Assembly (NCBI GenBank): GCA_964476605.1
Contig: CAYZBH010000004.1
Coordinates: 704 to 64,703 of the forward strand
Direction: 5' to 3'
Length of the DNA stretch: 64,000 bases
DNA from: an uncultured Thermoanaerobaculia bacterium
Lineage (GTDB): Bacteria; Acidobacteriota; Thermoanaerobaculia; Multivoradales; JAGPDF01
In this document: positions 25,301-52,303 of the stretch, piece by piece
Layout: each line of letters begins with the position of its first letter
Numbering within the stretch: the first letter of the stretch is position 1
The notes under the pieces: model-generated
Databases searched by the model: none
What the model saw: only the letters and a program-made list of their open reading frames with translations
Told to the model about the DNA's origin: nothing
Program-made: the position numbers and the translations under genes

Positions 25301-25905
25301 AGCCGCCGGAGGTGGAAGCGCCGGAGCTCGCTGTGGGGAACGATGCCGGGCTCTGCTCCGCGGTCGTGTCGTTCGAGGCCACGGCTAGCGACAACTGCCC
25401 GGGTCTCAGCGCTCTCACCTGCGCTCCATCCTCCGGGACCTCCTTCCCGGTTGGCACGACGCCGGTGAGCTGTTCGGTCGCCGATGCGGCCGGGAACAGC
25501 GCGTTCGATAGCGGTCGCGTCGAGGTTTCGGACCTCGAGGCGCCGATCCTCGACAGCTGTCCGGACGACGTGACCCTGGAGCTCCCTCCTGGCACCGAGA
25601 GCTGGCGGGTCGAATTCGCCCTTCCGCCCGGGTCGGACAACTGCCCGGGCCTGTTGATCGACTGCGTCCCGGCCTCTGGGAGCGACTTCCCGATCGGAAG
25701 CACGGAGGTCCTCTGTACCGCGATCGACGGTGCGGGTCTCCAAGCGAGCTGTGACTTCGTGGTCGATCTCTCGGCGCTCTCGGTGCTCGAGATTCCGACC
25801 CTTTCGGGACGGAGCCTGGCGCTTTTCGCGCTGATGCTCGGAGCAGGAGGAGGACTTCTCATTCGTCGGCGGAGGGGGTCGGCTAGCATGCGAGGAAACC
25901 GATGA
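16336..25905 (+). CDS. Giant (3,189 aa) secreted multidomain adhesin: DUF11 conserved repeats, FG-GAP/integrin-alpha-like beta-propeller, PKD-like repeats, two LamG/ConA-like modules, two Calx-beta domains, four HYR-like Cys-bounded modules, C-terminal IPTL-CTERM-like sorting tail
   Basis: - Signal peptide: MKQSHASLAGVVVSLGLWAFGGMAAAEA.
- DUF11-like: VTNTG/LTVTNPGTLAATGVTLTDLLPQHLGFVSASGGG.
- FG-GAP: DIDNDGKPEIL, DLDGDGFAEIVVG, DFDGDGAPEIGVA, DFDGDGWLEIIY, DVDRDGNAEIVV.
- PKD-like: xWGDG....HxYxxxGxYxxxxCVxDDDGG..C, about 6 copies.
- Calx-beta: TVVEGDAGVTPLLFTVSLDRAV...ETFSV.
- HYR-like: C...CGASVV...C.P.SGS.FPVG.T.V.C.A, 4 copies.
- C-terminal tail: EIPTLSGRSLALFALMLGAGGGLLIRRRRGS (motif + TM + basic). 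Confidence 0.85.
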   Translation: MKQSHASLAGVVVSLGLWAFGGMAAAEAPPLPSSRYGAVSLAGAPAPDGTVVSARFAGLEVAATVVDASSGTARYRLDVPGDRAETPEIEGPAEGEPFELRVGGALAATETWQSGLYTAADLATGGGADLAVAIDDGVTSIAAGGSLGAAVSVANQSSMAATGVDLVVDLPTGAALVSASDGGALDAQGRLRWPQFAISGGDGATRSFVAQLPSAYPAGIEIVETRVAVRHDGAEGGDPDPSDDSAGDVDALEAAPDLVTSVSDGASSVAPGSTLFYRTTVANSGTQGATGVELEVALPSGAELFSTSHGGHESGGVVRWPAVSLPASATFERVMTLRLPEDLDPGVGSLTVLAHAADDGTNGDDLEPADNDAIDVDGVTHAPDLVAREVSRFGTTTDPTTLEISGEVLVTMTNSGTLASGPFTTVVFLDVNGDGSYDPLVDSALGTAGHLSLVPQESNSVLVPVAGTVPFLGDRLFAFLDSDHEVSELSETNNVANSSTSCGAVPPPESFAPRVELSWPPAGGPTNFPRAIDSLSTPLVVQLTDDNGDGLWNELDIPDLVFVTADLTYLLEPQVALRAIRGGSGTPIFDVNGFFPHPTNPQLLSFSGLAAGDIDNDGKPEILSTTFGPAPFNQIRAYEHNGVPKWVSAAYRTHPSPTGLSNRDNPTIADLDGDGFAEIVVGANVFDRFGHLLWRGTGGQAFQSSGNSGDRGGAISVAADVDLDGRMEVVTGNTLYRWNGEIVWQVPWPDGFPAVANFDDDPQAEIVVVSQGTVRLHDTDGTLIWGPVTLPGSDPEAGGPPTIGDFDGDGAPEIGVAGSDVYVALDTDGSILWQAQTQDYSSNLTGSTTFDFDGDGWLEIIYRDERRLRIYRGYDGEVLFESVLSSNTQTEEPVVADVDRDGNAEIVVTSDRAPDVPVAPGERTYGLRVFGDAGDGWVAARPIWNQHAYTPELVDTDAGTPAVPAWSWLEHNSFRANVPPGGDPTAAPDLTASRLLVDLSALPQVSASVRIGNGGRTPVGPGLPVAFFDGDPQSGGALITTREVPQPLLPGGYADVSVSFPLVAVSSGLLVVVADHDGVSGRELECDEANNVASASLDLTSLGLWITLDDATTAVGAGDEVEVILAVHNAFAGAASGIAVEDTLPQHTQFVSASDGGAVSAGVVSWPAFGLGSGETKILRLTYEVDPAIPIGVTSLTNQATVTDDGSQGPDPSPGNNVATDVNTVTTVTADAGGPYLAAEGTTVLLDGTASFDRDGTIVSYLWDLDGDGEYDDASGPTVLWYAADEGAFTVRLQVTDDAGEIDVDAASVVISNVAPSIEAPAAIPGEEGAALTLASVVVGDPGLEDGLVATVAWGDGAEESFPVARGSLARDHTYLEDGTYAIELCVADGDGGETCAAIAAQVANVAPRIPVAVGYDVLGWSHEELGAGGTTSWNVAGDGLYATELRNGEPTVLVGDLPSLGEIAFDVRTTDGDDDYFGVAVGFHPGDLANHSADYLLVDWKGGDQSGAHRGLALSRVRGVPIPSELWAHFDAASNGSENSVTELARGLTRGHQGWLRNTAYRFRLEVGSSRLRVWVDDVLELDWAGSIPAGGLAFYDYSQAATTFATASSALALGGSEGDSLALRARFFDQGIEDTHTARVAWGDGSEESVPVAEEPGVGEVQATHVYPDEGDLTAEICVADDEGDEGCAEVPVRLENVAPTLTWILTTTGFREDPVSLAGTTFTDPGILDLHSATVDWGDGTVEPATVIESNGSGSVEGAHAYSSAGTYALSLCLDDGDGGVTCGNRTLELVDRFLDLAVTKTVSPGEARPGQRVTYALTVTNPGTLAATGVTLTDLLPQHLGFVSASGGGTHASGVTTWAIGTLAPGGSAVVTLQADVAASAPFGATVWNHASVADDGASGADGNPGDNEAAVPLRLSDSVTPIVTIASPLAGTEGLALALTGVTFADTAPSQRHTATIDWGDGTTGAGTVTPASGLTGTIGGSHVYADDGIYPLEVCVTDLGSHTGCTSAAITIENSTPVLLDPGPVDLHHWRAEEYASTEAHADWQVAADGLSVHQVINSTPSVFVSPIPAFGVPLEGIMKVGWDGNWDNDYIGFALGIHRGDTLNPDAEWLLVDWKQGDQTGALAGLAVSRVWGIPMTGEFWVHTDSPDNGPESGVQELARAATLSRIGWTENRDYRFRFDYGPTHLRIWVNDVLQFDLVGAFPEGGFAFYNYSQQDVLYRGFTVGAEDRFEGETFELIAPFTDLGPIDTFTGDVVWDDGATTSVVPEATGGFGAIRETHVYPDDGDYAIGVCVSDDDSATDCGSFPLLVYNLPPVVEASAELIASAGIDQAFPLATFTDPGRLDIHTATVSWGDGETGPGDVSEDDGSGSVAAVHAYAETGVYGVEICVADDDGGVGCDTTAVTVGAELPALVATKVVTPIDLDGDGQVTPGDQLVYRVEIANVGITPATGIRLTDPVPAHTGIVAGSVTPELYAVGEDPVTVEIPTLAPGDSMVVQFVVSIDTPLPTGVREIVNSGTVEANEVSPLLTDDPSLPGPADPTRIPVVVSSVLGLVKTAELVDLDGDGVATPGDEILWHVEAATGGDVAATGVLLRDSIPENSTLVPGSVVVSQGTVVALDPLTVAIGDLAVGSLVTLEMRTTIDPALPPEVTEIANQASVGSTEIDLLLSDDPATPIPADPTVVPVYRYPVLSVAPATVVEGDAGVTPLLFTVSLDRAVTESVSVTWSLADGTATAGEDYAPASGVVSIPAGATEATVSVDVLGDQVVEADETFSVTLAEPVLATLGVATATGTIVNDDATELFAADVAVEEGEPAIVSVVLTFPSALPVSVAWTTADGTAVAGEDYVPASGIVEFAPLQTSLTLVVETIEEEVQEEDETLSVLFSAPLGAGLPDPEAIVTILDDDTPDCALTCPERLVVANDPALCGASVVLPDPSSVGECGEVFCAPASGEFFPVGVTTVVCTAGAVAVSCTYEVEVQDLEPPEVEAPELAVGNDAGLCSAVVSFEATASDNCPGLSALTCAPSSGTSFPVGTTPVSCSVADAAGNSAFDSGRVEVSDLEAPILDSCPDDVTLELPPGTESWRVEFALPPGSDNCPGLLIDCVPASGSDFPIGSTEVLCTAIDGAGLQASCDFVVDLSALSVLEIPTLSGRSLALFALMLGAGGGLLIRRRRGSASMRGNR

Positions 25906-28900
25906 TGTGCGCCAAGCGATCGATGTTCGGCGACGGCCAGAGGCTGGTTGCGAGGTTGCTGATCGCCGCCTCGCTCCTGCCGACCGGGCCGGTGATGGGC
26001 CTGGGTCTCCTCGCGCCCGAGGAGCTCGGAATCGCCGTCGTGGAGCGCGTCCCCCTCGACGGGCGAGAGCTCACCGTCCGGGTGCGCACCACCACCTTCG
26101 ACGTCGTTCGCGATCGGGCCGCGCGAGTCTGGAGCAGCTGGCCGCCGCGCTTCGCGCGCTTCAGCGTTTTCGAGCTGCCGACGTGGATTTCGGCTAGGGG
26201 GGGCTCGGGCGGGTCGCTCCCGTTCACCGGTGGCGGCCCTAGGAACGCGCTGCTGCGCTGGCTGCAAGCGGACGGCGCGACGACCTCGGGCTCCTCGGTC
26301 CCTGCGCCGCAGGCGCAACCCGCTGCCGGCGATCCCTCGGACCCCTGGGGGATTCGCGAGGGATGGCGGCGGCCGGTCCTTCCGGCGCCACCGACGCCTC
26401 CGGATTTCGCTCTGCCTTCGCCCGGCGGGGCGGCGAACGCCGTCGCGCGACCGGGGACGCTTCGGCCGGCGGCGCCGGTGCCGCTCGCGCCGGCGTGGAA
26501 TCTGGTTTCGATCTCGTGGACGCCGGGCGATCCGTCGCCTGCGGCGGTGCTCGCCCCGGTCGCGTCGTCGATCGTCCGCGCGTTCGCCTTCGACGCTTGC
26601 GATCCCTCGGATCCTTGGAAGCTTTACGACCCGAGCGACCCGGGTGAGAGCGACCTCGCCGCGATCACGCCGGCGAAGGGGTTCTGGCTCGAGACGACGG
26701 GCGCCTCGACGATTCCGGAGGCGGGGCCGGAGCCGGCCGAGACGTCGATTCCGCTCTGCGTCGGCTGGAATCTCGTCGGCTTCCCCCGCTCTTCGTCGCA
26801 GGCGGTCGCCACGGCGCTCGCGACGATCGCCGGCCGCTATCTCCGTGTCTTCGGGTTCGATCCGAGCGATGCCGCCGACCCCTGGGAGGTCTACGACGTC
26901 GGCGTGCCGGCGTGGGCGAACGACCTCCAGGAGATGCGTCCCGGACGCGGCTACTGGATCTACGCCACCGAGGCGACGACCCTGGTGGTCTCGAACTCGA
27001 CCGATGCTCCGACGGTTTCGTTCGTCGCGCCGGCCGATCTCGCCGAGGTCACGGAGCGGGCGCCGGTCGTCGGGACGGTGCGCTCGACGTCGCTCGCCGG
27101 GTGGGAGCTCTCCTTCCGCGAGGCTGGCGTGGGAGGTTGGACCTCGCTCGCCACCGGCATTGCGCCCGTGGAAGCGAGTCCGCTCGCGACTTTCGATCCG
27201 ACCCTCCTCGAGAACGGGCTCTACGAGCTGCGGCTGCACGCGGTCGACACGCTGGGCCAGGTGGACGAGGCGACGATCGCGCTCTCGGTCGAGGGGCAGC
27301 AGAAGATCGGGCACTTCTCGCTCACCTTCGTCGATCTCGAGGTGCCGCTCGCCGGGCTGCCGATCCAGGTGCTGCGCGGCTACGACTCGAGGCGACGCGG
27401 CTCCTCCGGCGACTTCGGGTACGGGTGGAAGCTCGAGCTCAAGAGCGGCACGCTCCGCCACAACCGGATCCCGGGCGAAGGGTGGCAGCTCGCGGGGGGC
27501 TTCCTGCCGTGCGAAGCCTCGTACGAGCTCGACTCGCACCAGTCGACGGTACGTCTCTCGGATCGGGAGGTCTACCGCTTCCGGCCGGTGCTCTCGAGCC
27601 TCACACCGACGGCGGGGGGATGCTTCGCGACCTTCGGCTATGCGTTCGTGGACGGGCCGATTCCCGGTGCCACTCTGGAGGTCGTCGGAAACCGCCAGGT
27701 CTTCTACACCAACGGCGGCACCCAGCTCGTCGACACCGAGAGCTTCACCCTCTACGAGCCGGCGAAGGTCCGCCTGAGAACTCGCGACGGCCGCCAGTTC
27801 GAGCTCGACCGGCCGAACGGCGTCACCCGAATCGTCGACGCCAACGGCAATCGCATCGACTTCACGCCGACCGGCATCAGCCACTCGAACGGCGTGTCGA
27901 TCGTCCTCGAGCGGGACGGGCAGGGGCGGATCACCCGCGTCGTCGACCCGGCGGGAGCGGAGCTCCTCTACGGCTACGGTGGATCCGGGGACCTCGCGAC
28001 GTTTACCGATCGCGCGGCGAGCGTCACCAGCTTCGCGTACGGCGCCGGGCACTATCTGACGGAGATTCACGATCCGCTGGGGCGGACGCCGATCCGCAAC
28101 GAGTACGGTCCCGACGGGCGGCTCACGCGGCACGTCGATGCCTTCGGGCACGAGATCCTCTACGACCACCAGCTCGACGGCCGTCGTGAGGTGGTGACCA
28201 ACCGGCTCGGCGCCTCGCGCCTGCTCGACTACGACGCTCGCGGCAACGTCGTGCACGAGGTGGACGAGACGGGCCTCTCGACCGTTCGCACCTTCGACGC
28301 CGACGACCAGCTCCTTTCGGAGTCGATCGGCGGCCTGCCGGCCACGACCTACGCGTACGACGCCAACCGGAACCTGACGCGCACGACCGATCCGCTCGGG
28401 CACGCGACCCTCTTCACCTACGACGCCAAGGGAAACGTTCTCACGACGACCGACCCGCGCGGCGCGGTGACGACGAACGCCTACGACGCACGGGGCAACC
28501 TCGTTTCGACGATCGATCCGGCGGGCGGCTCCACGGCCTACACGTACGACGCGAAGGGAAATCTCCTCTCCGAGACCGACGCGCTCGGCCACGCGAGCGC
28601 CTTCGTCTACGACGCGCGCGGAAACCTCACGCGCGAGACCGACGCGCTCGGGAGCGTCGCGACCTACAGCTACGACACGCTCGGCAACCGGCGCTCCGAG
28701 ACCCGCACGCGCACGCTCCCCGACGGGACTCTCGAGCCGCAGGTCACGGGCTACATCTACGACGCGATGGGGCGCCTGCTCGCGACCACCGCGCCCGACG
28801 GCTCGGTGACCCGCTCGGAGTACGACGCGTTGGGCAACGTCGCGGCGACGGTCGACGCGCTCGACCGGCGCACCGAGCACACCTACGACGCGCTCGGCCG

Positions 28901-31736
28901 GATGACGCGAACCGACTACGCGGACGGTACGCACGACGCAGCCGGCTACGACGCAGAGAACCGGCGGACGACTTTCATCGATCGCGGGGGCCGGACGACG
29001 ACTTACGAGTACGACGCCGCCGGGAGGCTGCGCCGGACCTACTACCCGGACGGCGCCGTCGTCGAGCAGGTCTACGACGTCGCGGGGCGGTTGAGCTCGA
29101 CGATCGATCCGCGCGCGCACGCGACGGCCTACGGGTACGACGCCGCGGGCCGCCGAACGTCGGTCACCGACGCCCTGGGGCATATGACCTCGTGGAGCTA
29201 CGACGCGGCGGGGAACGCGACGTCGGTGACCGACGCGCGCGGCTTCACGACGGCGTCGCTCTACGACGCGCTGGGGCGGCTCACTCGGACGGTCTTTCCG
29301 GACGGGACGGAGCGGCGGACGGAGTACGACGCGTTGGGCCGCCGGACGGCCGAGATCGACGAAGCCGGGGCGCGAACCGAGTTCGGGTACGACGCTGTCG
29401 GCCGCCTGGTCTCGGTGACCGACGCGCTCGGCCAGGTGACCTCTTACGGCTACGACGAGGTCGGGAACCGGATCGCGCAGACCGACGCCAACGGCCACGT
29501 CACGCGCTTCGAGCTCGACAGTCTCGGCCGTCAGACGAAGCGGATCCTCCCCGGCGGAGCGGAGGAGCGCTTCACTTACGACGCCGCCGGGCAGCGCCGG
29601 ACCCGGACCGCCTTCGACGGGGTGGTCACCCACTACGCCTACGACCTCGCGGGGCGGCTTGCGACGCGCACCTATCCGGGCGGACGCGTCGAGAGCTTCA
29701 CCTACACGCCGAGCGGGCGGCGCGCGACGGCGACCGACGCGCGCGGCACGACGAGCTACGGTTACGACGCCCGGGATCGCGTCACGTCGATCCTCTCGCC
29801 GGACGGCCGGAGCCTCGCCTTCGCCTACGACCTCGCGGGCAACCGCTTGTCGACCACGGCCGATGTCGCTGGGCAGTCCCTTCCGACGCAGTACACCTAC
29901 GACGCCCTCAACCGCCTGGAGACGGTGACCGACCCGGACGGGAAGGTCACGGTGCACGGCTACGACGCCAACGGCAACCGGGAGAGCCTCGCCTTTCCGA
30001 ACGGCGTCGCGACGGTCTACGACTACGACGCACGGAACCGGCTGACGCACCTCGTGGCGGTCTCGCCGGTCTCGGGGGTGGTTTCGAGCTACGCCTACAC
30101 GCTTTCGCCGACCGGCAACCGGGCGCGGATCGAAGAGCAGGACGGGACGACGCGGAGCTACGGCTACGACGCGCTCTACCGGCTGACCGACGAGCAGGTG
30201 ACGTCGAGCCCGGCGCCCGGGAGCCCGACCCTCTGGCGGAACGTCTTCGGCTACGACCCAGTGGGGAACCGCCTGACCCAGCAGCGCACCGAAACGACGG
30301 GCGGCACGCACTCGGTGGCCTACGGCTACGACGCGAGAGACCGCCTGCTCACGGAAGACAGCACGACCTACGGCTGGGACGAGAACGGCAACCTGACCAG
30401 CAAGAGCGGCCCCGAGGGCGCGACCTACGTCTGGGACGACGAGAACCGCCTGACCGCGGTGAACCTCGCGAACGGCACGGTCGTCGAGCACACCTACGAC
30501 GTCGACGGCACGAGGATCAGGACGCGGACGACCCCGGCGACGGGACCCCCCACGACGACCGACTACCTCGTCGACCCCTGGCACCAGACGAGCGCGGCCG
30601 GCCGAGGCCTCGTCCTCAGCCAAGTCATAGCCGAAACCGACGAAGCCGGGAACCTCACCGCCTACCACGTCCGAGGCGACGACCTTCTCGCGACCCTGCG
30701 GCCCAACCCGACGCCACCGCCTGGCGAATCCCCCTGGATCGCGCGCTACCTCCACGCCGAAGGGATCGGGACCGTCCGGGCGCTCACGGACGAGCAAGGC
30801 AACGTCACCGATCGGTACACCCTCGAGGCGTTTGGAACGCTGCTGGATCACCTCGGGGACGATCCGAACGCGTACCTCTTCGCGGGGGAGCCGCTCGATC
30901 CGAATTCGGGCTTCTATTACAACAGGGCGAGGTGGGTGGATTCGAGGGCGGGGAGATTCGAAAGTGCTGATCCCCGCGTTGGATCCAGCTTCGAGCCTCT
31001 GACGCTTCACAGGTACCTTTACGCGGGCGCGAGTGCCACGAACCTTGTCGACCCGTCCGGGGAGGACTTCCAGGCCGTAGCTCTAGCCGCGGTGAACGCA
31101 GCGATCGGAATCCTGCAAACTGCACTTGTCTTCTCCGTTCTTGGTGCAATTGGTGGCGCTGCTGATGCTTACTTCGCCGAAGCTGATGTGGCAGCTGGTT
31201 TTGTCAGCGGGATGAAGGTCGGGTTCGCAACGGGCCTCCTCTGGCGACTCAAGTTCCTGCGGCCAACACTGACGGCACTTGGCCTGACGCTTGGCGCGAC
31301 GGCAACGTTTCAGGCGTTCATGGACGGCGACACAGGGCTCGCACTGTTCAGGGGCATCGTGTTCGTCGCTGGCGTTGCCGGAGTAGTCACGGCTGGTGGA
31401 ACGCATCCCGGCGGAGAGATGATCGTGTATCGCTCGGTCAACTCGGCGACCGGTGAGATCCAATATGTGGGCATCACAAGGAACCTTGCAGCCCGCGCTG
31501 CTGCGCACCTGCGCCAGAAGGGAATCGAAATTGAGCCGATTGGTGGGATTGAGGACTTGAGTATGACCGATGCCCGGAATGTCGAGGAAGCTCTCATCGT
31601 CTACTACGGGCTCGGCAAGAACGGAGGTACGCTGCTAAATAGAATCCACAGCATCTCACCACGAAGCCCAATATACGCTGAGCGGCTCTCTCGGGGCGTG
31701 CAGTTGCTTCGCGGAGCAGGTTACCCAGACATCTAG
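25902..31736 (+). CDS. RHS/YD-repeat polymorphic toxin (Tc-toxin BC-fusion-like): signal/Pro-rich N-terminus, SpvB-like domain, >40 YD repeats, RHS-associated core, C-terminal hydrophobic linker + GIY-YIG-type nuclease toxin domain
   Basis: - Start ATGA overlaps the stop of the upstream adhesin (translational coupling).
- SpvB-like: VPLAGLPIQVLRGYDSRRRGSSGDFGYGWKLEL.
- Dozens of YDxxGNL / YxYDxxGRL repeats.
- RHS core: VDPWHQTS...YYNRARWVDSRAGRFESADP...HRYLYAGASATNLVDPSGE.
- C-terminal ~245 aa is lower-GC and contains GEMIVYRSVNSATGEIQYVGITRN...R...H...E..LI...N (GIY-x11-YVG, R, E, N motifs). Confidence 0.85.
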   Translation: MMCAKRSMFGDGQRLVARLLIAASLLPTGPVMGLGLLAPEELGIAVVERVPLDGRELTVRVRTTTFDVVRDRAARVWSSWPPRFARFSVFELPTWISARGGSGGSLPFTGGGPRNALLRWLQADGATTSGSSVPAPQAQPAAGDPSDPWGIREGWRRPVLPAPPTPPDFALPSPGGAANAVARPGTLRPAAPVPLAPAWNLVSISWTPGDPSPAAVLAPVASSIVRAFAFDACDPSDPWKLYDPSDPGESDLAAITPAKGFWLETTGASTIPEAGPEPAETSIPLCVGWNLVGFPRSSSQAVATALATIAGRYLRVFGFDPSDAADPWEVYDVGVPAWANDLQEMRPGRGYWIYATEATTLVVSNSTDAPTVSFVAPADLAEVTERAPVVGTVRSTSLAGWELSFREAGVGGWTSLATGIAPVEASPLATFDPTLLENGLYELRLHAVDTLGQVDEATIALSVEGQQKIGHFSLTFVDLEVPLAGLPIQVLRGYDSRRRGSSGDFGYGWKLELKSGTLRHNRIPGEGWQLAGGFLPCEASYELDSHQSTVRLSDREVYRFRPVLSSLTPTAGGCFATFGYAFVDGPIPGATLEVVGNRQVFYTNGGTQLVDTESFTLYEPAKVRLRTRDGRQFELDRPNGVTRIVDANGNRIDFTPTGISHSNGVSIVLERDGQGRITRVVDPAGAELLYGYGGSGDLATFTDRAASVTSFAYGAGHYLTEIHDPLGRTPIRNEYGPDGRLTRHVDAFGHEILYDHQLDGRREVVTNRLGASRLLDYDARGNVVHEVDETGLSTVRTFDADDQLLSESIGGLPATTYAYDANRNLTRTTDPLGHATLFTYDAKGNVLTTTDPRGAVTTNAYDARGNLVSTIDPAGGSTAYTYDAKGNLLSETDALGHASAFVYDARGNLTRETDALGSVATYSYDTLGNRRSETRTRTLPDGTLEPQVTGYIYDAMGRLLATTAPDGSVTRSEYDALGNVAATVDALDRRTEHTYDALGRMTRTDYADGTHDAAGYDAENRRTTFIDRGGRTTTYEYDAAGRLRRTYYPDGAVVEQVYDVAGRLSSTIDPRAHATAYGYDAAGRRTSVTDALGHMTSWSYDAAGNATSVTDARGFTTASLYDALGRLTRTVFPDGTERRTEYDALGRRTAEIDEAGARTEFGYDAVGRLVSVTDALGQVTSYGYDEVGNRIAQTDANGHVTRFELDSLGRQTKRILPGGAEERFTYDAAGQRRTRTAFDGVVTHYAYDLAGRLATRTYPGGRVESFTYTPSGRRATATDARGTTSYGYDARDRVTSILSPDGRSLAFAYDLAGNRLSTTADVAGQSLPTQYTYDALNRLETVTDPDGKVTVHGYDANGNRESLAFPNGVATVYDYDARNRLTHLVAVSPVSGVVSSYAYTLSPTGNRARIEEQDGTTRSYGYDALYRLTDEQVTSSPAPGSPTLWRNVFGYDPVGNRLTQQRTETTGGTHSVAYGYDARDRLLTEDSTTYGWDENGNLTSKSGPEGATYVWDDENRLTAVNLANGTVVEHTYDVDGTRIRTRTTPATGPPTTTDYLVDPWHQTSAAGRGLVLSQVIAETDEAGNLTAYHVRGDDLLATLRPNPTPPPGESPWIARYLHAEGIGTVRALTDEQGNVTDRYTLEAFGTLLDHLGDDPNAYLFAGEPLDPNSGFYYNRARWVDSRAGRFESADPRVGSSFEPLTLHRYLYAGASATNLVDPSGEDFQAVALAAVNAAIGILQTALVFSVLGAIGGAADAYFAEADVAAGFVSGMKVGFATGLLWRLKFLRPTLTALGLTLGATATFQAFMDGDTGLALFRGIVFVAGVAGVVTAGGTHPGGEMIVYRSVNSATGEIQYVGITRNLAARAAAHLRQKGIEIEPIGGIEDLSMTDARNVEEALIVYYGLGKNGGTLLNRIHSISPRSPIYAERLSRGVQLLRGAGYPDI

Positions 31737-31744
31737 CGGGAGAG

Positions 31745-32221
31745 TTGCAATTGACAAAGATAGGCGACGTCTTCGGAATCCAGACCAAGATTGGGCTAGC
31801 CCTCTTTCAGGTTACTCACCGCCATTCGCAGCTGGGTCACCTGATCCGAGTTCTTGAAGGTCACTTCTCTGTTTGCCCGGAAGACCTGGAGGTACTAGTG
31901 ACTCGGCCTCATCGATTCCTCACTTTCTTTCCAGTTACTGCCGCCGAGAAGCGAGGCATCATCAGGAAGGTGGGGAGCCTCGGAGTTCCGGAGTCTTGCA
32001 AGGCGTTTCCAGTGTTTCGCGCGGCCGGTGCAACTGATCGAAAGGGAAGGGTGCTGACCTGGTGGCTCTGGGATGGTTCGCGAAGTTGGCCAGCTGGAGA
32101 TTTGAGCGACGAACAGCGAAAGCTCCCCATACGAGCGGTCTGGAACGACACTCTGCTGATTGAGCGGATTGACGCTGGATGGACGCCGGAGTCTGACGCT
32201 AGAGGGGAGAAGATGGGCTGA
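31745..32221 (+). CDS. Putative cognate immunity protein for the RHS C-terminal nuclease
   Basis: 158-aa ORF starting 9 bp after the RHS stop, same strand. Lies in the same low-GC tract as the toxin tip. No signal peptide and no recognisable family. Position and composition are the only evidence. Confidence 0.45.
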   Translation: MQLTKIGDVFGIQTKIGLALFQVTHRHSQLGHLIRVLEGHFSVCPEDLEVLVTRPHRFLTFFPVTAAEKRGIIRKVGSLGVPESCKAFPVFRAAGATDRKGRVLTWWLWDGSRSWPAGDLSDEQRKLPIRAVWNDTLLIERIDAGWTPESDARGEKMG

Positions 32222-32758: not shown

Positions 32759-33688
32759 CTACCCGGAGGCGAAGCGGCGCGGTAGCGCAGGCGGGAAGGA
32801 GCCCTCGGGGAAGAGGACGTCGAGTGTTCCCGTGCGCAGCCGATCGGCGGCGCGGCGATACGCGTTGAGGAATCCCCGATAGGCCTCGCGGAGGGCCGTT
32901 CGAGCTGTCCGTGAGGCGGCATGGACGAGCGGGGCGGGGCCCTTCTTGAGCCGGTTCGGTTCGTGGTGGGGATCTTGCCGCAACACGCCCTCCCAGCCGA
33001 GCGGTGGCGCTCCCGTCTGGCGTTCCTGGTTGCGCCCTTCCTGCTCGATTCCGTCGACCAGGTCCCAAATGTGGCTCCTCCGCCGTGATTCGGTAAGCCC
33101 TCTCCAGCAAGGGAGTTGCACGAGCTCAAGCGATTCGACCGTGACGAACGCCTCGGGATCGAGGGGAAGGCGCCGGCGGGCTGCGGTGTGCTCGAGCGTG
33201 CGGTCGATCCAGCGGCCGGAAACGGGCTGATTCTCGAGCAGAGCCTTGGCGCAATGGGCGCCGGGCCAGTCGAAGGGAGAAGACACGAGGCCCTCTTTGA
33301 CGCCATGAGCGAGGACGTAGCGGAGGCGAGCGATTTGGGCCTCCTCCTCGCTGGAGACCAGGATCGCTTGGTATCTCCGGCCCCAGAATTTCTCACGCCA
33401 GCGGATGAGCCGCCCGGCTTCGCGGGCGAGATTGGAGTTGAGGTAGTTCATGAAGCTGGCCAGCCGCTGTGCGCTCTCGACGGTCACCAGCAGGTGGAAA
33501 TGATTGGAGAGAAAGGCGAAGGCGTGGAGCTCGACCGGGTAGAGGCGCGCGGCCCGAGCGAGGACGCCGAGCGTCAGGTCGCGGAGGATCGGCGTGGGGC
33601 TGAGAAGGAGCCGGCCCTGCACGGTCCGACAGGTGACTTCGACGAGCGATCCAGGCGGAATGAAGCGCAACCGGCGACACATACTCAC
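32759..33688 (-). CDS. IS200/IS605-family Y1 (HUH) transposase, REP-associated tyrosine transposase (RAYT)-like
   Basis: HUH motif NHFHLLVTV. Downstream conserved W..RRYQAIL segment carrying the candidate catalytic Tyr (REKFWGRRYQAILVSSEEE). ~300 aa. Flanked on both sides by REP-like repeats. Confidence 0.7.
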   Translation of the reverse strand: MSMCRRLRFIPPGSLVEVTCRTVQGRLLLSPTPILRDLTLGVLARAARLYPVELHAFAFLSNHFHLLVTVESAQRLASFMNYLNSNLAREAGRLIRWREKFWGRRYQAILVSSEEEAQIARLRYVLAHGVKEGLVSSPFDWPGAHCAKALLENQPVSGRWIDRTLEHTAARRRLPLDPEAFVTVESLELVQLPCWRGLTESRRRSHIWDLVDGIEQEGRNQERQTGAPPLGWEGVLRQDPHHEPNRLKKGPAPLVHAASRTARTALREAYRGFLNAYRRAADRLRTGTLDVLFPEGSFPPALPRRFASG

Positions 33689-45685: not shown

Positions 45686-45758
45686 GCGAAGAAGACGGTC
45701 GGGAGCGTTGCGCCGAGGGTTGCCATCAGCGGCGCAAGCGATGTCCTATCAGCAAGTT

Positions 45759-45801
45759 GCGAATCGGCTGGCACCTGCGAGACGTGCACCTGCGAGACGT
45801 G
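45759..45801. repeat. REP copy followed by 15-bp tandem duplication (CACCTGCGAGACGTG x2)
   Basis: In the convergent spacer between the rhodanese and SRPBCC genes. Confidence 0.55.
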
Positions 45802-46365: not shown

Positions 46366-46776
46366 TCAACTCGTTCGGAGCCGCTCCCAGAACGCACGCG
46401 GCGCGAGGCGGGGGAAGGGCAGGTCGATCTCGGCTTGCAGGAGCTCGCGGTCACCTGTGACGAAGACCTCGGCGGCCGCGGCCGCCGCCTCGGCGAGGAT
46501 CCACGCGTCGTCGGCGTCGACCGGCAGGTCGGCGGCGTGTTCGACACGGGCGACGCGCGCGATGGCGACGGCCTGGTCGCGTAGCAGCGTCTCGATCTCG
46601 TCGAGGGTCGCGCGGGGCAGGCCGAGCTTGCGTTCGAGCACGCCGCCGAGCTCAGCGAGCAGGCGTTCGCCCGCCAGGAGCTCGTGCTCGGCGAGCGTCA
46701 GGGCCAGGAGATCCGAGCAGAGTCCGCGCGTCGCGAAGGCGGCGACGAGGACGTTGGTGTCGAGGAAGACCCTCAA
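46366..46776 (-). CDS. vapC: PIN-domain toxin VapC
   Basis: LDTNVLV N-terminus with Asp4. Acidic residues in TGDRELL. 136 aa. Overlaps the upstream antitoxin gene by 4 bp. Confidence 0.8.
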   Translation of the reverse strand: MRVFLDTNVLVAAFATRGLCSDLLALTLAEHELLAGERLLAELGGVLERKLGLPRATLDEIETLLRDQAVAIARVARVEHAADLPVDADDAWILAEAAAAAAEVFVTGDRELLQAEIDLPFPRLAPRAFWERLRTS

Positions 46777-47003
46777 GAGACGTCGCGGAAGACGTCCTCG
46801 TCGGTGAGATAGCCGCGCGCCTCCGCGATCGGCGCGACCCGCCGGCGCAGCCGCTCGAGCTCCGCGAGCGCGAGCTGCCGCCGAAGCGCCTCTCGCGCGA
46901 GCTCGCTCTTGCTCCGACCCGTCGTCGCGGCTAATTGGGACAACTTGCGATCGAGCTCCCGATCAAGCCGAATCGTCAGCACCGAATCTCGCATGTAGGA
47001 CAT
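46773..47003 (-). CDS. vapB: RHH/CopG-type antitoxin (VapB-like)
   Basis: 76 aa. LTIRLDRELDRKLSQLAATTGRSKSELAREALRRQL is a ribbon-helix-helix. Adjacent to and coupled with vapC. Confidence 0.7.
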   Translation of the reverse strand: MSYMRDSVLTIRLDRELDRKLSQLAATTGRSKSELAREALRRQLALAELERLRRRVAPIAEARGYLTDEDVFRDVS

Positions 47004-47347
47004 TGTAATACGACGGTGGACGACCGGCCAACGGAGTTTTTTCGAGACGCAACTCTTTCCGTTTCAGTAACTTGAGAAACAGCTGGCACCTTTGAGATCC
47101 GGCTCCCGCGACCGCAAGGCTCGACAGCCACTCCTAGCGGCGAGTCTCGAGGCGCGGCAAAGCAGAGAACTACCCCCTGACCCGAGAGTCTTCAATGAGT
47201 GGCACTTGCGACGTCGTGAAGCCGGAACCAAGGTGCCCTCCCAGGATCGCTGTCTTGAAATCAAACAAGGCGCCGCCTGCGCGCTTGAATGGGCGCAAGC
47301 AAAAATGTAAGGTACCGCCTCACGTCTCACATCCCCTAGGAGGTCGC

Positions 47348-48211
47348 ATGGCAGTGGACCTTGAAATGGTGGGCTCAGGCTCCAAGTCCTGGAATCGGCG
47401 CGGTTCCTACCGCGTTGTCCGCACAGACGCAAGCATCAAGACGCTGTACGTGCAGGGCGCGGGCGGCGGAGGTGGCGGGGGCGGTGCGGGTGGAAGCGGA
47501 TACAACGGGTCACAAACGGACAACGCTGGTGGTGCTGGAGGCGGGGCCGGCGCTTACTACCAGGGCTCCCTGGAGATCAAGATAGGGCAAGTGCCAGTGG
47601 GAGTCGAGTTTGTCGTGGTAGTTGGCGGAGGTGGGCAGGGCGGGTCAGGCGGATCTGCAGGTCTCAACGGCAAGGATGGCGACACAGGTGGCGTCACCTC
47701 CTTCGGCAACGCAGATCCTACGATCGGCCGACTCGTCACGCTATTCGGCGGCCAGGGTGGTCGTGGAGGCGGCGGAAGCCAAGCTCACTGGCCAGGAGCT
47801 GGCGGTTCTGGAAGCGCTAGTGTCAGTCTCGGAGGTAAGGCGGGCACGGATGGAGGGATGGGTGGCGGACCAAGTCAGCACGGGAGTCAAGGTCAAAGCT
47901 CAGGCACCGCAGCTGGTGGCGCAGGTGGCACAACCGTAACCGGTGGGACCTATGATCCCCACGCATCGATTCTCGACACCCGCAATGGCGGTGGGGGTGG
48001 CGGCGGGGGTGCTTCGTACGGAAAAGGAGGCAAAGGTGGAAACGGCGGAGACATCTCCGCCGCAACCACTGCGCCTGGACCGGGCTTGGCTGACGGACCA
48101 GAGGTTGGTGGCGGAGGCGGGGGTGGTGGCGGCCTAGGACAAGACTACCAATACGGCGGACGCGGCTCCGATGGGGCCGACGGCTTTTTCACCCTTACGT
48201 GGTCAACATGA
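47348..48211 (+). CDS. Glycine-rich protein (about 45% Gly; poly-Gly runs) in a low-GC island
   Basis: ORF 47195..48211 trimmed to ATG 47348, preceded by AGGAGGTCGC. Repeated GGxGG / G8-9 runs. No obvious signal peptide. The coding region is low-GC despite the Gly codons. Confidence 0.5.
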   Translation: MAVDLEMVGSGSKSWNRRGSYRVVRTDASIKTLYVQGAGGGGGGGGAGGSGYNGSQTDNAGGAGGGAGAYYQGSLEIKIGQVPVGVEFVVVVGGGGQGGSGGSAGLNGKDGDTGGVTSFGNADPTIGRLVTLFGGQGGRGGGGSQAHWPGAGGSGSASVSLGGKAGTDGGMGGGPSQHGSQGQSSGTAAGGAGGTTVTGGTYDPHASILDTRNGGGGGGGGASYGKGGKGGNGGDISAATTAPGPGLADGPEVGGGGGGGGGLGQDYQYGGRGSDGADGFFTLTWST

Positions 48212-48383
48212 GAAGTTGCTCTTGATTGGCTGAGCACTGCTTGTCAATTCGCCGATAACTGCCGTCGCTCAGCGCGATGCCGCACGGAAAGTGGTGGTGG
48301 CCGATTCGTAAGCCGTTCCCCATCAGCGACTTGCGAATCGTGAGCTGCGAACACTTACGGTAACAAACGACTGTCCGGGACTG

Positions 48384-48400
48384 CGAATCGGCTGGCACCT
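48384..48400. repeat. REP copy at the junction between low-GC DNA and a high-GC gene remnant
   Basis: GCGAATCGGCTGGCACCT. Confidence 0.55.
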
Positions 48401-48403
48401 GCG

Positions 48404-48550
48404 AGCACCCCGGACCGCGGCGCCATCGAAGTCGGCAAGCTCGCCGACCTCGTCGCCGTCGCCGGCGACCCGCGCGCCGACGTCAGCACCCTCGAGCACC
48501 GGCTCTGGGTGGCCAAAGGCGGCGACGTGCTGGAGGGGAAGGGCCGCTAA
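48404..48550 (+). pseudogene. 3'-terminal remnant of an amidohydrolase-superfamily gene
   Basis: High-GC 147-bp tract translating in frame to ...GAIEVGKLADLVAVAGDPRADVSTLEHRLWVAKGGDVLEGKGR*. This GxIEVGKxADLV...V..G..V ending is typical of metal-dependent amidohydrolases. No upstream body or start is present. Confidence 0.45.
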
Positions 48551-48676
48551 CGCGGCATGCGAGCCTCGGCCCCGGAATTGAGTAAGCGTGGAGGACCGAA
48601 GGCGCCATGGAGCGGGCGAATCCATCAACCTGGCCCCTTAGCCCCCTACTCTCCTAGCCGGCAGCCTTCGCAGAGG

Positions 48677-49234
48677 TTATTCGTCGTCCGGCATGTCGAC
48701 GGCTAAGTCGTACTCCCGCGACTCTCGAGCGTCCATGGTCACGAGGCGCCCACCGGCCCTGGAGAATTCTCGGGCTCCTGGCGAGACCCAGTAGGCACCC
48801 ACGCGCTCGAATCCGCGAGTGAGGGCTGCGAGAAAACCCTCGTAGAAACGGCCTGATCGACCGCTGCCGTGAAGCGTGGCGACACGTCCCGCGACGAGCG
48901 TGCGATCGCCGTGCAATCCACCGAAGCTGCAGATCAGGGCTAGCGGGTTCTCGCCCTGGTCGACGGCGAAGGTCAGTCGCCCGCCCCGCGGGACGAACCA
49001 CTGTCGCCGCAGCGGGCAAAAGCGAGGCAAGATGAGATAGTCGGGATCTTGGATATGAATCCCGGTGAGACTGTGCCCGAGGCCCGGGACTTCGTGAATC
49101 GCCCTCAACACGGGAACCCTCCAAGAGGAGTAGTGCCCGCACCGCACGAGCTTGATCCGTCTCGCGATCGCAGGGGCATCCAGCCGCTCCTTGATCTCGA
49201 CCCCCGTAGCGAAAAAGTTGAGTTGGCGCGTCAC
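48677..49234 (-). CDS. Hypothetical protein (cassette gene C), low-GC island
   Basis: 185 aa. Starts 13 bp after the stop of gene B. No family recognised. Contains an H-x-x-D (HIQD) motif. Confidence 0.45.
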   Translation of the reverse strand: MTRQLNFFATGVEIKERLDAPAIARRIKLVRCGHYSSWRVPVLRAIHEVPGLGHSLTGIHIQDPDYLILPRFCPLRRQWFVPRGGRLTFAVDQGENPLALICSFGGLHGDRTLVAGRVATLHGSGRSGRFYEGFLAALTRGFERVGAYWVSPGAREFSRAGGRLVTMDARESREYDLAVDMPDDE

Positions 49235-49247
49235 GAATCGAACCAGT

Positions 49248-49742
49248 CTAGGGCAACCACTCGAACTGCACCTGTTCTCCGTCCGGCACGTCGCGAAGTT
49301 GCTCGTGAATGTGGCCGGTGAAGCCGAGGTGCTTCCGCCAGTCGTTGGGAAAGAAGTTGTCGGTCTCGAGCCTCCCGCCGAGGACGGGGAGGAGCTTGGG
49401 GGAGTAGCACTGCCCTTCGGTGAGCGCGATTCCGTTCTCGCGGAGTTCCGCGACCAGGTCGGGAAGAAGCCAAGCGTTGGACACCTCGGCGCGCCGGAGT
49501 TGCTCGCGGAGCTCCTCTAGGCTCCTCGCCGCGCGCTCGAAGGTGCCGCCCATCGCGTCGAGGAAGAACACTTGCTCCCTTCGGAGGAGCCACGTCGGCC
49601 GGACCACGAAGAGGTCCCCCATCGCCGTCAGGAAGAGTGGCCTCGCGCGTCGCCCCACGAGCCACCGCCAGTTCGCGAGCGGATCGTCGGGCCCCGCGTC
49701 GGTGACGGATACGAAGAGATCGCGAAAGGCGAGCGGGATCAT
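49248..49742 (-). CDS. Hypothetical protein (cassette gene B), possibly DUF1851/Tdi1_C-like immunity-type domain
   Basis: 164 aa. GDLFVV...VFFLDAMGGT...LLPDLVAELRENGIALTEGQCYSPKLLPVLGG. The GQCY..K.P..LGG pattern matches my recollection of the DUF1851 family. Unverified. Confidence 0.45.
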   Translation of the reverse strand: MIPLAFRDLFVSVTDAGPDDPLANWRWLVGRRARPLFLTAMGDLFVVRPTWLLRREQVFFLDAMGGTFERAARSLEELREQLRRAEVSNAWLLPDLVAELRENGIALTEGQCYSPKLLPVLGGRLETDNFFPNDWRKHLGFTGHIHEQLRDVPDGEQVQFEWLP

Positions 49743-50242
49743 CCGGGGGCGAGAACGTCTGCGAGCTCGCGGCGGTAGGCCGCGACGAGCTGAAGAGAAC
49801 GGAGGATTGGGCGATGCTCGGGAACTGCGTTGCGCGCCGGGTGAGTGTCGCGTAGGGAAGCGAGGATCTCCCTGAGGAGTTCAGGAACGAGGAGCAACCG
49901 ACCGCCACCGATCTGCTTGACGTTGACCGTACTGGCGTACATGAGCACGGCGATTTGCTCGAGGTTCTTCGGCACCTTAAAGCCACTGAATAGGTCAGGT
50001 ACGTACTTTCGCCCCGCCGCGAACTTCCTCCGGAATCGAGCCTCACGCTTCTCCCAGCTCAGCGCATCGAGCGAGGGCTCGAGCTGAACGAGATGCCTTG
50101 TGTGCGGGTGGAATGCGACGACGTCGAGCTCGCACTCGTAGCCCCCCTTGGCCCGCTTGCCCACTAGGACGTTCCGCCGAACGAAGTAGCCCCGATGTTC
50201 GTACCACTCCGCGATCAGCTGTTCGAGGAAGTTCTGTGCCAT
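49739..50242 (-). CDS. Hypothetical protein (cassette gene A)
   Basis: Trimmed to MAQNFLEQ at 50242 (168 aa). Stop overlaps the start of gene B by 4 bp. Has a GGYECELDVVAF segment that is weakly nuclease-like. No confident family. Confidence 0.4.
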   Translation of the reverse strand: MAQNFLEQLIAEWYEHRGYFVRRNVLVGKRAKGGYECELDVVAFHPHTRHLVQLEPSLDALSWEKREARFRRKFAAGRKYVPDLFSGFKVPKNLEQIAVLMYASTVNVKQIGGGRLLLVPELLREILASLRDTHPARNAVPEHRPILRSLQLVAAYRRELADVLAPG

Positions 50243-50292
50243 TGGGGGCCTTTGGAAGGCGTGGCCGAGGCGGCCGCGACGTGATCGAGCCG

Positions 50293-51201
50293 CTACCCCT
50301 CTCCTTCGAAGTAATCGGAGTCGACACGTTTGAGTTGGTAGACGGCGCGCGGCGAAACGCCGAGATCGAAGTCGATCATGTACTCCGCGAGCTGGCGGCC
50401 GTCGATCAACACGACTCGAGGTTCGATTCGAGAGACGTAATCTTCTGCCTCGGCTGAGAAGACTCCAGTGGTGAGGAACACGCCCTTGCGAGCGCGCTTG
50501 CCATGAAGGGCGCCGACGAACTTCTGGATCTCGGGGCGCCCCACGGTGCCTTCCCATCTCTTTGCTTGGATGTAAATAGCCTCGAGGCCGAGACGATCCT
50601 CGCTGATTACTCCATCGATTCCCTCGTCGCCGGCCCCGCCAATGGCTCGGCCGGCTTCAGCGCGATCGCGCCCGTAGCCCATCTTGAGGAGAAGCTCGAC
50701 GACAAGCTGTTCGAAGAAGCTCGGAGTAGACGCCTTGACCCGATCGAGGAGCTCCGCGGCCAGCTTTGCCCGAATGGTCTGAAACGCGTGCTCGATGCGC
50801 TCCTCGGGCGTTTCTTCAGGCTCGGCGTCATTCCCTGCAACCGGCTTCTCGCGAGGCGCCTGATTCCTCCATGCTTGGAACTCCGGAAACTGAAGCAGAA
50901 AGCGCAGGTCGACACGATTGAGGCCACGCCCGACCACTTCGCGGCCACGCTCCGTGATCCGGAACTGGCCCTCCTTCGGCGACTCGAGCAGCAGCGCCCG
51001 CCCGAGGTGGACCTTGGCCCAGGCAACGCGATTGTCGAACCGCCTCGCGCGGGCACTCGGGAGCAGCTCGGCTCGGTCCTCCGGCGTGAGCGAGAACTCG
51101 GCGGCCAGATGTTCGCGCGCCTCTGCCATGGTGTGCACCAGCCCGTCGTCCGCGAAGCGCAGAAGAGGCAGCATGAGACTCTGAAAGTCAGGAATCGGCA
51201 T
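50293..51201 (-). CDS. mrr: Mrr-family type IV (modification-dependent) restriction endonuclease
   Basis: Mrr_N winged-helix N-terminus (MPIPDFQSLMLPLLRFADDG). Mrr_cat core: GDEGIDGV...EAIYIQAKRW (D...QxK variant). 302 aa. Confidence 0.85.
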   Translation of the reverse strand: MPIPDFQSLMLPLLRFADDGLVHTMAEAREHLAAEFSLTPEDRAELLPSARARRFDNRVAWAKVHLGRALLLESPKEGQFRITERGREVVGRGLNRVDLRFLLQFPEFQAWRNQAPREKPVAGNDAEPEETPEERIEHAFQTIRAKLAAELLDRVKASTPSFFEQLVVELLLKMGYGRDRAEAGRAIGGAGDEGIDGVISEDRLGLEAIYIQAKRWEGTVGRPEIQKFVGALHGKRARKGVFLTTGVFSAEAEDYVSRIEPRVVLIDGRQLAEYMIDFDLGVSPRAVYQLKRVDSDYFEGEG

Positions 51202-51430
51202 GCGGATACTTTATGTCTAACCCCCAAAGCGGCTGATGCGGTCGCCAGCCCAGGTGTAGTTCTTGGCCGCTAGGTTTCCTTAATGTTTGGACCTCGGCTT
51301 CCGGCCTTCGGCTTCGGAGGTGCGGAACCGCCTTTGACAACGATATTGGGGGGCGGCGTGGGCGGCTTGGTCGGTCTCGGCTTGGCGACTTCGCCTTTTG
51401 GCGGCTTCGTTGTAGTCATCTGGGTCTCCC

Positions 51431-51955
51431 TTAGGAAGGGGGGTGAACGCAGTCAAGAACACAGCGAATGCCTGCAATCAGAGCCAGAGCAAGGGCGAGA
51501 GCGACCCATCGACTTGCCGAATACAGACGCTCAGAGCGCAGGTTGTTGCTGTAAGCGTTCGCTGTAGCGGCTTCCACGAGACGGAGACGAAGATGTTCGG
51601 CGAATGCTGCATCTGCGTCGTAGTCCTTGGCGGTGTCCTGCTGGGCTTTGTAGTCCTGCAGCGCCTCGTAGTGCGCCAAGAGATCCTGCGCGGAGGCGAG
51701 GTGCTGCCAGCTAAAGCCGAGGTAGATGCGCACGATTTGCAGGATAGCTAGGACAAGCGAAAAGGCAGCGAGGGTGGCGATCCAGACCTGCATCCTGGGA
51801 GCTGTTTGCCCGCTTGCGGCGTAGACACGGTAGTACTGGGTGAACAGGCCTGCGACGAGCCCGATGCCTACAACCCGCAGGCCTGGTGCAGCGTCCAGTT
51901 GATTTCGCCGGTCCAGCTCTCGGAAGTGAAGTTCTTTTGCGAATTGTAGGTCCAT
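51431..51955 (-). CDS. Hypothetical 3-TM membrane protein with a central ~80-aa charged helical segment
   Basis: 174 aa. TM1: LRVVGIGLVAGLF. TM2: VWIATLAAFSLVLAILQIV. Charged segment: SWQHLASAQDLLAHYEALQDYKAQQDTAKDYDADAAFAEHLRLRL. TM3: VALALALALIAGI. First gene of the minus-strand string that includes mrr. Confidence 0.45.
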   Translation of the reverse strand: MDLQFAKELHFRELDRRNQLDAAPGLRVVGIGLVAGLFTQYYRVYAASGQTAPRMQVWIATLAAFSLVLAILQIVRIYLGFSWQHLASAQDLLAHYEALQDYKAQQDTAKDYDADAAFAEHLRLRLVEAATANAYSNNLRSERLYSASRWVALALALALIAGIRCVLDCVHPPS

Positions 51956-52303
51956 AGCCCCGCCAGAGTTTCGGATCGTGCCGACAACTAGCCGGTGAAG
52001 AGGTGTCGGGCATAGAGCCCTTCTTGCCGCCCAACGCCAGTTGCAGTCGCCAGCGTTTCTGCTGACCCTCCACTAGAGAGCATCGGGGTCTCAGGCGAGC
52101 TCGCCCGAGGCACCACAGGTTCGGGCGCCCGTGCCATTCGGGAAGGAATAAGAGTCGGGCCCGTGAAGCCAGCACTCTTCTTCTTCACGCTCATACCCTA
52201 TTAACGAACACCCCCCCCAAAACGGTCGCGACCCCTCGAAATTTCTTCGGAAGGGGCCGCGGGAGGTGTTTCGGGCCGATACGCCGACCGGGCTGGGGGG
52301 CGT

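Follow-up and report, generated by a model that had tools for sequence, protein, structure and literature searches.

A 64-kb stretch of contig CAYZBH010000004.1 from an uncultured Thermoanaerobaculia bacterium (64,000 nucleotides; hereinafter the window) carries, within an island of low GC content, a run of co-oriented genes made up of the restriction gene mrr and three small genes that we call A, B, and C. The four genes and the island that holds them are as follows:

50293–51201, minus strand: mrr, the first gene of the co-oriented run, coding for a type IV (modification-dependent) restriction endonuclease of 302 amino acids (aa)
49739–50242, minus strand: gene A, 167 aa, ATG start at 50242, with a predicted PD-(D/E)xK (restriction-endonuclease-like) fold
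49248–49742, minus strand: gene B, 164 aa, a stand-alone DUF1851/T6SS_Tdi1_C protein, probably an orphan immunity protein like the Tdi proteins, which counter Ntox15 DNases
48677–49234, minus strand: gene C, 185 aa, GTG start at 49234, a member of an uncatalogued family of ~180-aa proteins
47000–52300: the low-GC island, delineated from the composition profile, which holds a glycine-rich open reading frame (ORF), C, B, A, mrr, and a 174-aa membrane ORF

The genes are tightly packed: mrr and A are separated by 50 bp, A and B overlap by 4 bp (ATGA, comprising the stop codon of A and the start codon of B), and C follows B after a gap of 13 bp. The coordinates, strand, and spacing of A, B, and C given in a first-pass annotation, made from the letters of the DNA and a list of ORFs, are thus confirmed, as are its sizes for B and C; the 168 aa that it gave for A is a count of codons including the stop. 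In the composition profile of the window, the island shows a GC content of ~0.60–0.65 as against 0.70–0.77 in the flanks, and the GC content at third codon positions (GC3) is 0.58–0.87 in the island genes as against 0.89–0.94 in the flanking genes. On account of this distinct GC content and lower GC3, the region looks horizontally acquired; neither a tRNA nor obvious flanking direct repeats were found at its ends. The frames of A, B, and C display a coding-type pattern (GC3 of 0.75–0.87 vs 0.40–0.50 at second codon positions), and all three ORFs are intact. The Mrr protein is a typical member of its class (Pfam Mrr_N, 2.9e-28; Mrr_cat, 4.9e-35; PADLOC mREase_IV, 8e-82) and is the sole product of the four to match a PADLOC defence-system model, with none recovered for A, B, or C at E≤1. 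The four genes are probably co-transcribed; a promoter and terminator scan of the locus returned signals no better than chance.

The relationships of B are the most readily established. It matches PF08906 (T6SS_Tdi1_C, where T6SS is the type VI secretion system) with an e-value of 1.6e-11 and a score of 44.3 bits (cutoff 27.4), residues 73–146 aligning with positions 2–75 of the 75-position model. The resemblance to DUF1851/T6SS_Tdi1_C that the first-pass annotation had noted from short motifs, all of which are present in B, is accordingly a genuine family match. Searches of the PDB with a profile of B and ten relatives recovered 8G0K_B (5.2e-7, profile positions 32–144), Atu4351 (6ITW, 4e-4), and 8FZZ_B (2.6e-3), of which 8FZZ and 8G0K are Tde/Tdi effector-immunity complexes (PMC10470768). 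Tdi inserts into the Ntox15 nuclease and disrupts it, and orphan Tdi proteins bind the toxin at ~20 nM and protect cells (PMC10470768). B shares with Tdi1/Tdi2 (Atu4351 of Agrobacterium tumefaciens, 6ITW; the Bacteroidales Tdi proteins, 8FZZ and 8G0K) not only the PF08906 domain but also the GDLF and G-x-C-Y...P-x-L-G-G motifs and, as with many tdi genes, it occurs as an orphan without a tde gene. Unlike the characterized Tdi1 proteins, which bear an N-terminal GAD-like domain (PMC4096383), it is just 164 aa long and lacks that domain, and neither an adjacent Ntox15 nor T6SS genes were seen with it; its similarity to the solved Tdi proteins is remote (E from 5e-7 to 3e-3). In Pfam searches, no Ntox15/Tde toxin was detected in the products of the adjoining mrr, A, or C genes.

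The short, stand-alone form of B has ample precedent. All ten B homologues are stand-alone proteins of 123–215 aa with PF08906 as their only domain, and residues 9–158 of B align with a 187-aa stand-alone Tdi1-domain protein from the Rhizobium plasmid pRL12. On Rhizobium and Mesorhizobium plasmids, RefSeq likewise lists proteins of 122–187 aa under the name 'T6SS immunity protein Tdi1 domain-containing protein', with no toxin next to them. As stand-alone Tdi1_C proteins of 122–215 aa are already an established architecture, no gene fission need be invoked for B. Judging by these family relationships, B is probably a stand-alone orphan immunity protein of the Tdi type, for which neutralization of a Tde DNase is the predicted function.

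C, by contrast with B, belongs to no catalogued family. A word-indexed protein search recovered C itself only, as if it were an orphan gene, and this was overturned by an exhaustive HMMER search, which retrieved 768 representatives at E<1e-3, mostly of 175–185 aa and with 153 at E below 1e-10. The family members align from residue 1–4 and have in common an N-terminal FFAT motif, which supports the GTG start and 185-aa product over the 144-aa call of some pipelines. Neither Ntox15 (PF15604) nor any other Pfam family was found for C at E≤1 or for 46 family members at E≤0.1; the family has no NCBIfam match, and C itself has no PHROG or PDB-sequence match. An AlphaFold (AF2) model of C was obtained with very high confidence over the full length (pLDDT 95.8) and displays a mixed α/β fold with 12 strands and 4 helices, for which Foldseek found no significant match in the PDB (best E 0.14, TM ~0.2) or BFVD. 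Two further family members, P0229 (365 aa) and P0281 (374 aa), have pentapeptide repeats fused to the C-terminus of the C-family domain (PF00805, 5.5e-17). The 2971-aa protein P0214, matched over 10 stretches, is a cadherin/Ig-repeat adhesin and was discarded as spurious.

A function for the C family is suggested by the gene neighborhoods of its members, as retrieved through exact look-ups and from plasmid records. At four of the eight non-redundant loci (L027/28, L031, L043/44, and L030), the C-family gene lies directly after, and co-oriented with, a gene coding for an Rhs or CdiA-like protein. For example, P0136 (L027/28) begins 20 bp after the gene for an Rhs protein with 24 RHS repeats, which is at least 1659 aa long as limited by the contig end (2717 aa according to the gene caller); the relative from Cohnella yongneupensis (L031) lies 13 bp after the gene for a 1902-aa Rhs protein, and P0143 (L043/44) 13 bp after that for a YD-repeat protein of at least 1546 aa. 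The Ralstonia solanacearum relative on pUW163a (L030) has a 4-bp overlap with the end of a gene coding for a DUF6862 protein in a filamentous-haemagglutinin/ShlB locus of the contact-dependent inhibition (CDI) type. The C-terminal ~100 aa of the four upstream proteins are homologous to one another (39–65% identity, E down to 5e-38) even as their scaffolds range from Rhs to CdiA/DUF6862. This shared ~100-aa toxin tip, found in three Rhs/YD proteins and one CdiA-like DUF6862 protein, is encoded at:

L028:4670-4978, Rhs protein preceding P0136
L031:5677-5982, Rhs protein of Cohnella yongneupensis
L043:4335-4631, YD-repeat protein preceding P0143
L030:5486-5872, CdiA-like DUF6862 protein of Ralstonia solanacearum

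The tip is characterized by the motif GGRxG..TR...G(W/Y)..T.G.G..EE(Y/W)..P...G..(Y/F).D(L/I/V)TA...R(I/V)(N/Q)T. Searches of Pfam, NCBIfam, and PDB sequences gave no match for it, the one hint being a weak match to the XamI restriction endonuclease (E 0.078). At the remaining loci, the C-family genes are orphans in immunity or toxin-antitoxin islands; for instance, the relative on a Hymenobacter plasmid adjoins genes annotated as 'immunity 53' and 'colicin immunity'. A toxin tip that recurs on differing scaffolds, each time with the same small gene after it, is the hallmark of a polymorphic toxin and its cognate immunity protein. On this synteny at eight loci, the C family probably provides the immunity cognate to a conserved C-terminal toxin domain of Rhs/CdiA proteins.

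In these respects the C family resembles RhsI/CdiI-type immunity genes, its members likewise lying 13–20 bp after, or overlapping by 4 bp, Rhs/CdiA-like genes whose variable tips are homologous. It differs from the known systems of this type in that neither the family nor its partner toxin has a Pfam, NCBIfam, or PDB-sequence match and the fold of C has no PDB or BFVD match. The partner toxin tip has no copy in the 64-kb window, which makes C an orphan here. This situation recalls orphan immunity arrays of the kind called acquired interbacterial defence clusters, as other C relatives lie among annotated immunity genes and the window has C without its toxin; it departs from them in that B and C adjoin a restriction enzyme rather than forming part of a recombinase-associated array. 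C thereby exposes a predicted toxin-immunity pair absent from Pfam and NCBIfam, with a toxin of ~100 aa and an immunity protein of ~180 aa with 768 representatives; the toxin tip spans Firmicutes, Betaproteobacteria, and uncultured bacteria, and the immunity family has a confidently predicted fold with no solved relative.

The same evidence bears on the proposal of the first-pass annotation that C is an Ntox15-like toxin. The H-x-x-D motif that it noticed does exist as the one HxxD of C (H60-I-Q-D63). As a catalytic signature of Ntox15/Tde DNases it carries no information: neither H60 nor D63 is conserved in an alignment of 46 family members, and 28% of shuffled C sequences contain at least one HxxD. 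Moreover, there is no Pfam match in C and 45 relatives, the model is mixed α/β while Ntox15 is described as all-α (PMC4096383), and the relatives of C occur downstream of Rhs/CdiA toxins, which is where an immunity gene is placed.

The window codes for an Rhs protein of its own, with a small gene after it:

25902–31736, plus strand: Rhs toxin, 1944 aa (RHS_repeat, 2.5e-142)
31745–32221, plus strand: ORF of 158 aa, 8 bp downstream of the Rhs gene, with no Pfam match

This Rhs protein is 45% identical over ~1500 aa to the Rhs proteins of L028 and L043, and the similarity spans the hydrophobic pre-toxin linker and ends at residues 1829–1865, before the tip. Its own C-terminal ~110 aa is GIY-YIG-like (PF01541, 5.8e-4; the score of 20.5 bits falls slightly short of the Pfam cutoff), and the 158-aa ORF is its probable own immunity gene, so that the two would form a toxin and cognate immunity pair. 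At its start, the Rhs gene has 4 bp in common with the end of a gene (16336–25905) for a 3189-aa adhesin-like protein with DUF11, PKD, Calx-beta, FG-GAP, and HYR domains. As the window Rhs shares its class with the carriers of the toxin presumed to be cognate to C, the host plausibly meets such toxins from its relatives; and since the toxin accompanied by the C family is one delivered by relatives of this Rhs, an orphan antidote would be worth keeping.

The third small gene, A, is of a different kind. It has no match in Pfam, NCBIfam, PHROG, PADLOC, or PDB sequences, and its family profile recovered no PDB chain at E≤10, Atu4351 included. Sequence searches with A retrieved 1489 homologous proteins at E<1e-3, of which the top 120, from Planctomycetota, Chloroflexota, Pseudomonas, Sphingobium, Nitrospina, and others, are 155–208 aa long, 57–71% identical, and without a Pfam domain. 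An AF2 model (pLDDT 93.1, pTM 0.87; from a 34-sequence alignment) displays the secondary-structure order H-E-E-E-H-E, and in Foldseek comparisons with the PDB its best-scoring matches are all PD-(D/E)xK nuclease domains, namely R2 RLE (5e-4), followed by Can2/Card1, DrdV, PspGI, EcoO109I, Bax1, XisH, and DdmD. Like the PD-(D/E)xK nucleases (Mrr_cat, the Hjc/YraN-type minimal cores, R2 RLE, and Can2/Card1), the modeled A has an α-β-β-β-α-β core with the usual placement of acidic residues: a Glu in helix 1, E38-x-D40 in strand 2, and E55 in strand 3. It differs from them in being unrecognized by sequence models, in its solitary occurrence as a single domain of ~165 aa, and in having an invariant serine for lysine. 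The residues invariant in the family are E7, E15, E38, D40, E55-P56-S57, D59, and Q96. Of these, E7, E15, E38-L-D40, and E55 fit a PD-(D/E)xK active site, but the lysine position is taken by serine, which leaves activity uncertain. A is therefore best described, on its modeled structure, as a predicted PD-(D/E)xK-fold protein for which catalysis is plausible and not assured, given the E-P-S in place of the canonical lysine, and probably as a metal-dependent nuclease or nucleic-acid binder. That a family so large, and 50–70% identical across phyla, should be without annotation is of interest in itself.

These results dispose of the idea that A is the upstream, GAD-like half of a split Tdi1 protein. 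The GAD-like family (PF08887) matches neither A nor B at E≤1 in Pfam, the family lacks any PDB-chain match, and the model has a nuclease fold; of the family assignments proposed for the three genes, PF08906 for B holds while PF08887 for A and Ntox15 for C fall. The structure predictions concur, with A adopting a PD-(D/E)xK and not a GAD-like fold and C an α/β fold without a PDB/BFVD match and distinct from Ntox15.

Two other origins for A were considered and rejected. The first helix of A (FLEQLIAEW..GY) is like that of the catalytic domain of the neighboring Mrr (FFEQLVVEL..GY); a 28-nucleotide stretch at the start of A (50207–50234) is also 79% identical to one coding for that helix of Mrr (50695–50722; peptides NFLEQLIAE and SFFEQLVVE). 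The likeness is confined to the first helix, and hhalign gave a probability of 0.7% for A as a diverged Mrr_cat. A relationship of A to the partner toxin of C fared no better, the A family against the Rhs/CdiA tip yielding an hhalign probability of 0.1%.

We then surveyed 110 A loci drawn from 14 genomes, 80 metagenome contigs, viral contigs, plasmids, and exact look-ups. None has a B- or C-family neighbor (family hidden Markov models, with E<0.01 for B), and an Mrr-like gene lies directly upstream of the A relative in just two (L052 and L064). The B loci examined, for their part, have neither A nor C. Some A relatives neighbor genes for a type I restriction-modification (R-M) system and YgjP (L011), a large DNA methylase (L016), a helicase-nuclease (L015), or, on a plasmid, TIR/TPR proteins (L041), and in Azospirillum for a cluster annotated as a giant RNaseH-domain protein, an AAA ATPase, and a DUF6035 protein; others adjoin plain housekeeping genes. 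In two Planctomycetota loci, the A relative adjoins genes for homologous proteins of ~255 aa (L013:5702-6484, plus strand; L016:5578-6333, minus strand; 25% identity, E 4e-10) with a PDF(V)...GIE-x-T motif and no Pfam match, which may be another nuclease-fold protein.

Unexpectedly, 26–28 of the 110 loci (L006, L032–L035, L054–L094; e.g., L006:6001-6498) place A in the glycolate oxidase operon, at the precise junction of glcE and glcF, in the order glcD-glcE-A-glcF. Across 17 distinct glc loci, the mean identity is 0.80 for A vs 0.74 for GlcF (r=0.69). In this lineage A is vertically inherited and strongly constrained; its vertical inheritance and its better conservation than GlcF speak against A as a toxin needing B. 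The fixation of this family between glcE and glcF is unexplained and worth a look. Five of the glcE-A-glcF loci also have a gene for an N6_N4 DNA methylase downstream of glcF. The notion of A as a phage-borne gene was rejected on its near absence from viruses, as none of the 50,697 phage records carries it and just 3 viral contigs out of 2.9 million do.

Taking the three genes together, we favor, with moderate confidence, the explanation that the locus is a mosaic island of an Mrr endonuclease, a solitary PD-(D/E)xK-fold protein, and two probable orphan immunity genes, with no common origin. Under this mosaic reading, the four genes would have been acquired independently into the low-GC island and packed there as a co-oriented run. 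B and C would each bind and neutralize a nuclease-type toxin tip delivered by competitors, with the Tdi-type B wedging into the Ntox15 core as in its solved relatives, while A would travel alone, unrelated to B and C. With no matching toxin encoded nearby, B and C are most likely orphan immunity genes; we infer a protective function for them in the host. The locus would then be an ordinary mosaic: B adds to a family already known, C comes from an uncatalogued family whose general type is well known, and A from a nuclease-fold family without annotation. The suggestion in the first-pass annotation that an immunity island was kept as an orphan next to a restriction enzyme comes close to this as regards B and C, and its alternative of an unrecognized defence trio finds no support, as A, B, and C never co-occur outside this organism in the loci surveyed.

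Several observations weigh against the mosaic reading. The 4-bp overlap of A and B and the 13-bp gap between B and C suggest translational coupling and hence a possible functional link in this organism. No toxin was seen next to the closest relatives of B, so that the target of B is drawn from distant solved homologues; Ntox15 was not found in a Pfam scan of the window's largest ORFs alone, and one may lie elsewhere in the window or genome. The immunity role of the C family is read from synteny at eight loci. In A, the position of the lysine in the (D/E)xK signature is an invariant serine (E-P-S-x-D), for which the likewise invariant K73 might substitute, so that catalysis is uncertain.

A first alternative, which we judge unlikely if still to be taken seriously, is that B and C are relics or repurposed genes, being leftovers of a decayed toxin-immunity locus or having some other role, which give no protection and persist as cargo of a mobile island. 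It draws on the lack of a toxin partner in the locus, the absence of toxins at every B locus examined and at half the loci of the C family, and the foreign composition of the island. It sits poorly with the intact ORFs and coding-type codon pattern of all three genes, the very confident full-length model of C, the protection shown for orphan immunity genes of the Tdi type (PMC10470768), and the presence in the host of an Rhs protein from the class that also carries the presumed cognate toxin of C.

Less probable, in our estimate, is that A and B, perhaps with C and Mrr, form a nuclease-inhibitor pair in an anti-phage operon, B restraining A in the manner of a toxin-antitoxin or abortive-infection system. 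The ATGA overlap and tight spacing of four co-oriented genes would be explained by such an arrangement, as would the pairing of a protein with a nuclease fold and invariant acidic residues with one whose relatives are nuclease inhibitors; A relatives are, furthermore, often found near R-M or defence genes, as at L011, L016, L015, and L041 and with the Mrr-like genes of L052 and L064. Yet a B-family gene occurs at none of the 110 A loci and A at none of the B loci examined, the PADLOC models recognize none of A, B, or C, and A stands alone in glcDEF, where its vertical inheritance and its conservation beyond that of GlcF are unlike those of a toxin needing an antidote. A more elaborate version, to which we give very little credence, has B (Tdi1_C) recruited as a regulator or inhibitor of A in one operon with Mrr and C, as a composite defence module built from parts of interbacterial warfare; if true, the translational coupling through ATGA would be functional and not incidental.

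Finally, the original model of A and B as the fissioned GAD-like and DUF1851 halves of Tdi1 with C as an Ntox15/Tde-like HxxD DNase, for which B being a true Tdi1_C protein, A occupying the upstream position of the GAD-like domain of characterized Tdi1 (PMC4096383), and the single HxxD of C had spoken, is wrong and is refuted on every testable point except the family of B: A has a PD-(D/E)xK fold and no GAD-like, Atu4351, or PDB-chain similarity, no fused A-B protein occurs among the listed homologues of either family nor a B relative at any of the 110 A loci, and C combines the lack of an Ntox15 match with an unconserved HxxD of the kind seen by chance in 28% of shuffles, an α/β fold, and relatives in the immunity slot.

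Further genes in the low-GC island and at its edge flank this run. Upstream of mrr, an ORF on the minus strand (51431–51955) codes for a hydrophobic, membrane-like protein of 174 aa with no significant family match. At the other edge of the island lies a VapBC-type toxin-antitoxin pair (46366–47003, minus strand), in which the gene for a ribbon-helix-helix (RHH) antitoxin (76 aa; RHH_1, 1.2e-9) overlaps that for a PIN-domain toxin (136 aa; PIN_3, 3.4e-10). Between this pair and C, the plus strand has a glycine-rich ORF (47195–48211, 338 aa) with long GGGGG runs, an unusually low GC3 of 0.58, and a sub-threshold match to Gly_rich_2 (E 0.022).

This glycine-rich ORF has on both sides copies of a short intergenic repeat with the core GAATCGGCTGGCACCT, which occurs 16 times in the window, on both strands, vs 0 expected:

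14996, 15799, 15901, 33717, 33758, 35468, 36409, 36440, 37025, 43323, 44498, 44537, 44567, 45757, 47072, 48381: sites of the intergenic repeat

Longer versions of ~50 nucleotides were found at 45733–45782, 47048–47097, and 48307–48406. The copies at 33717 and 33758 adjoin a gene for an IS200-like Y1 transposase of 309 aa (32759–33688; PF01797, 1.4e-7), which suggests that the repeat and the transposase are a pair of repetitive extragenic palindromic (REP) element and REP-associated transposase.

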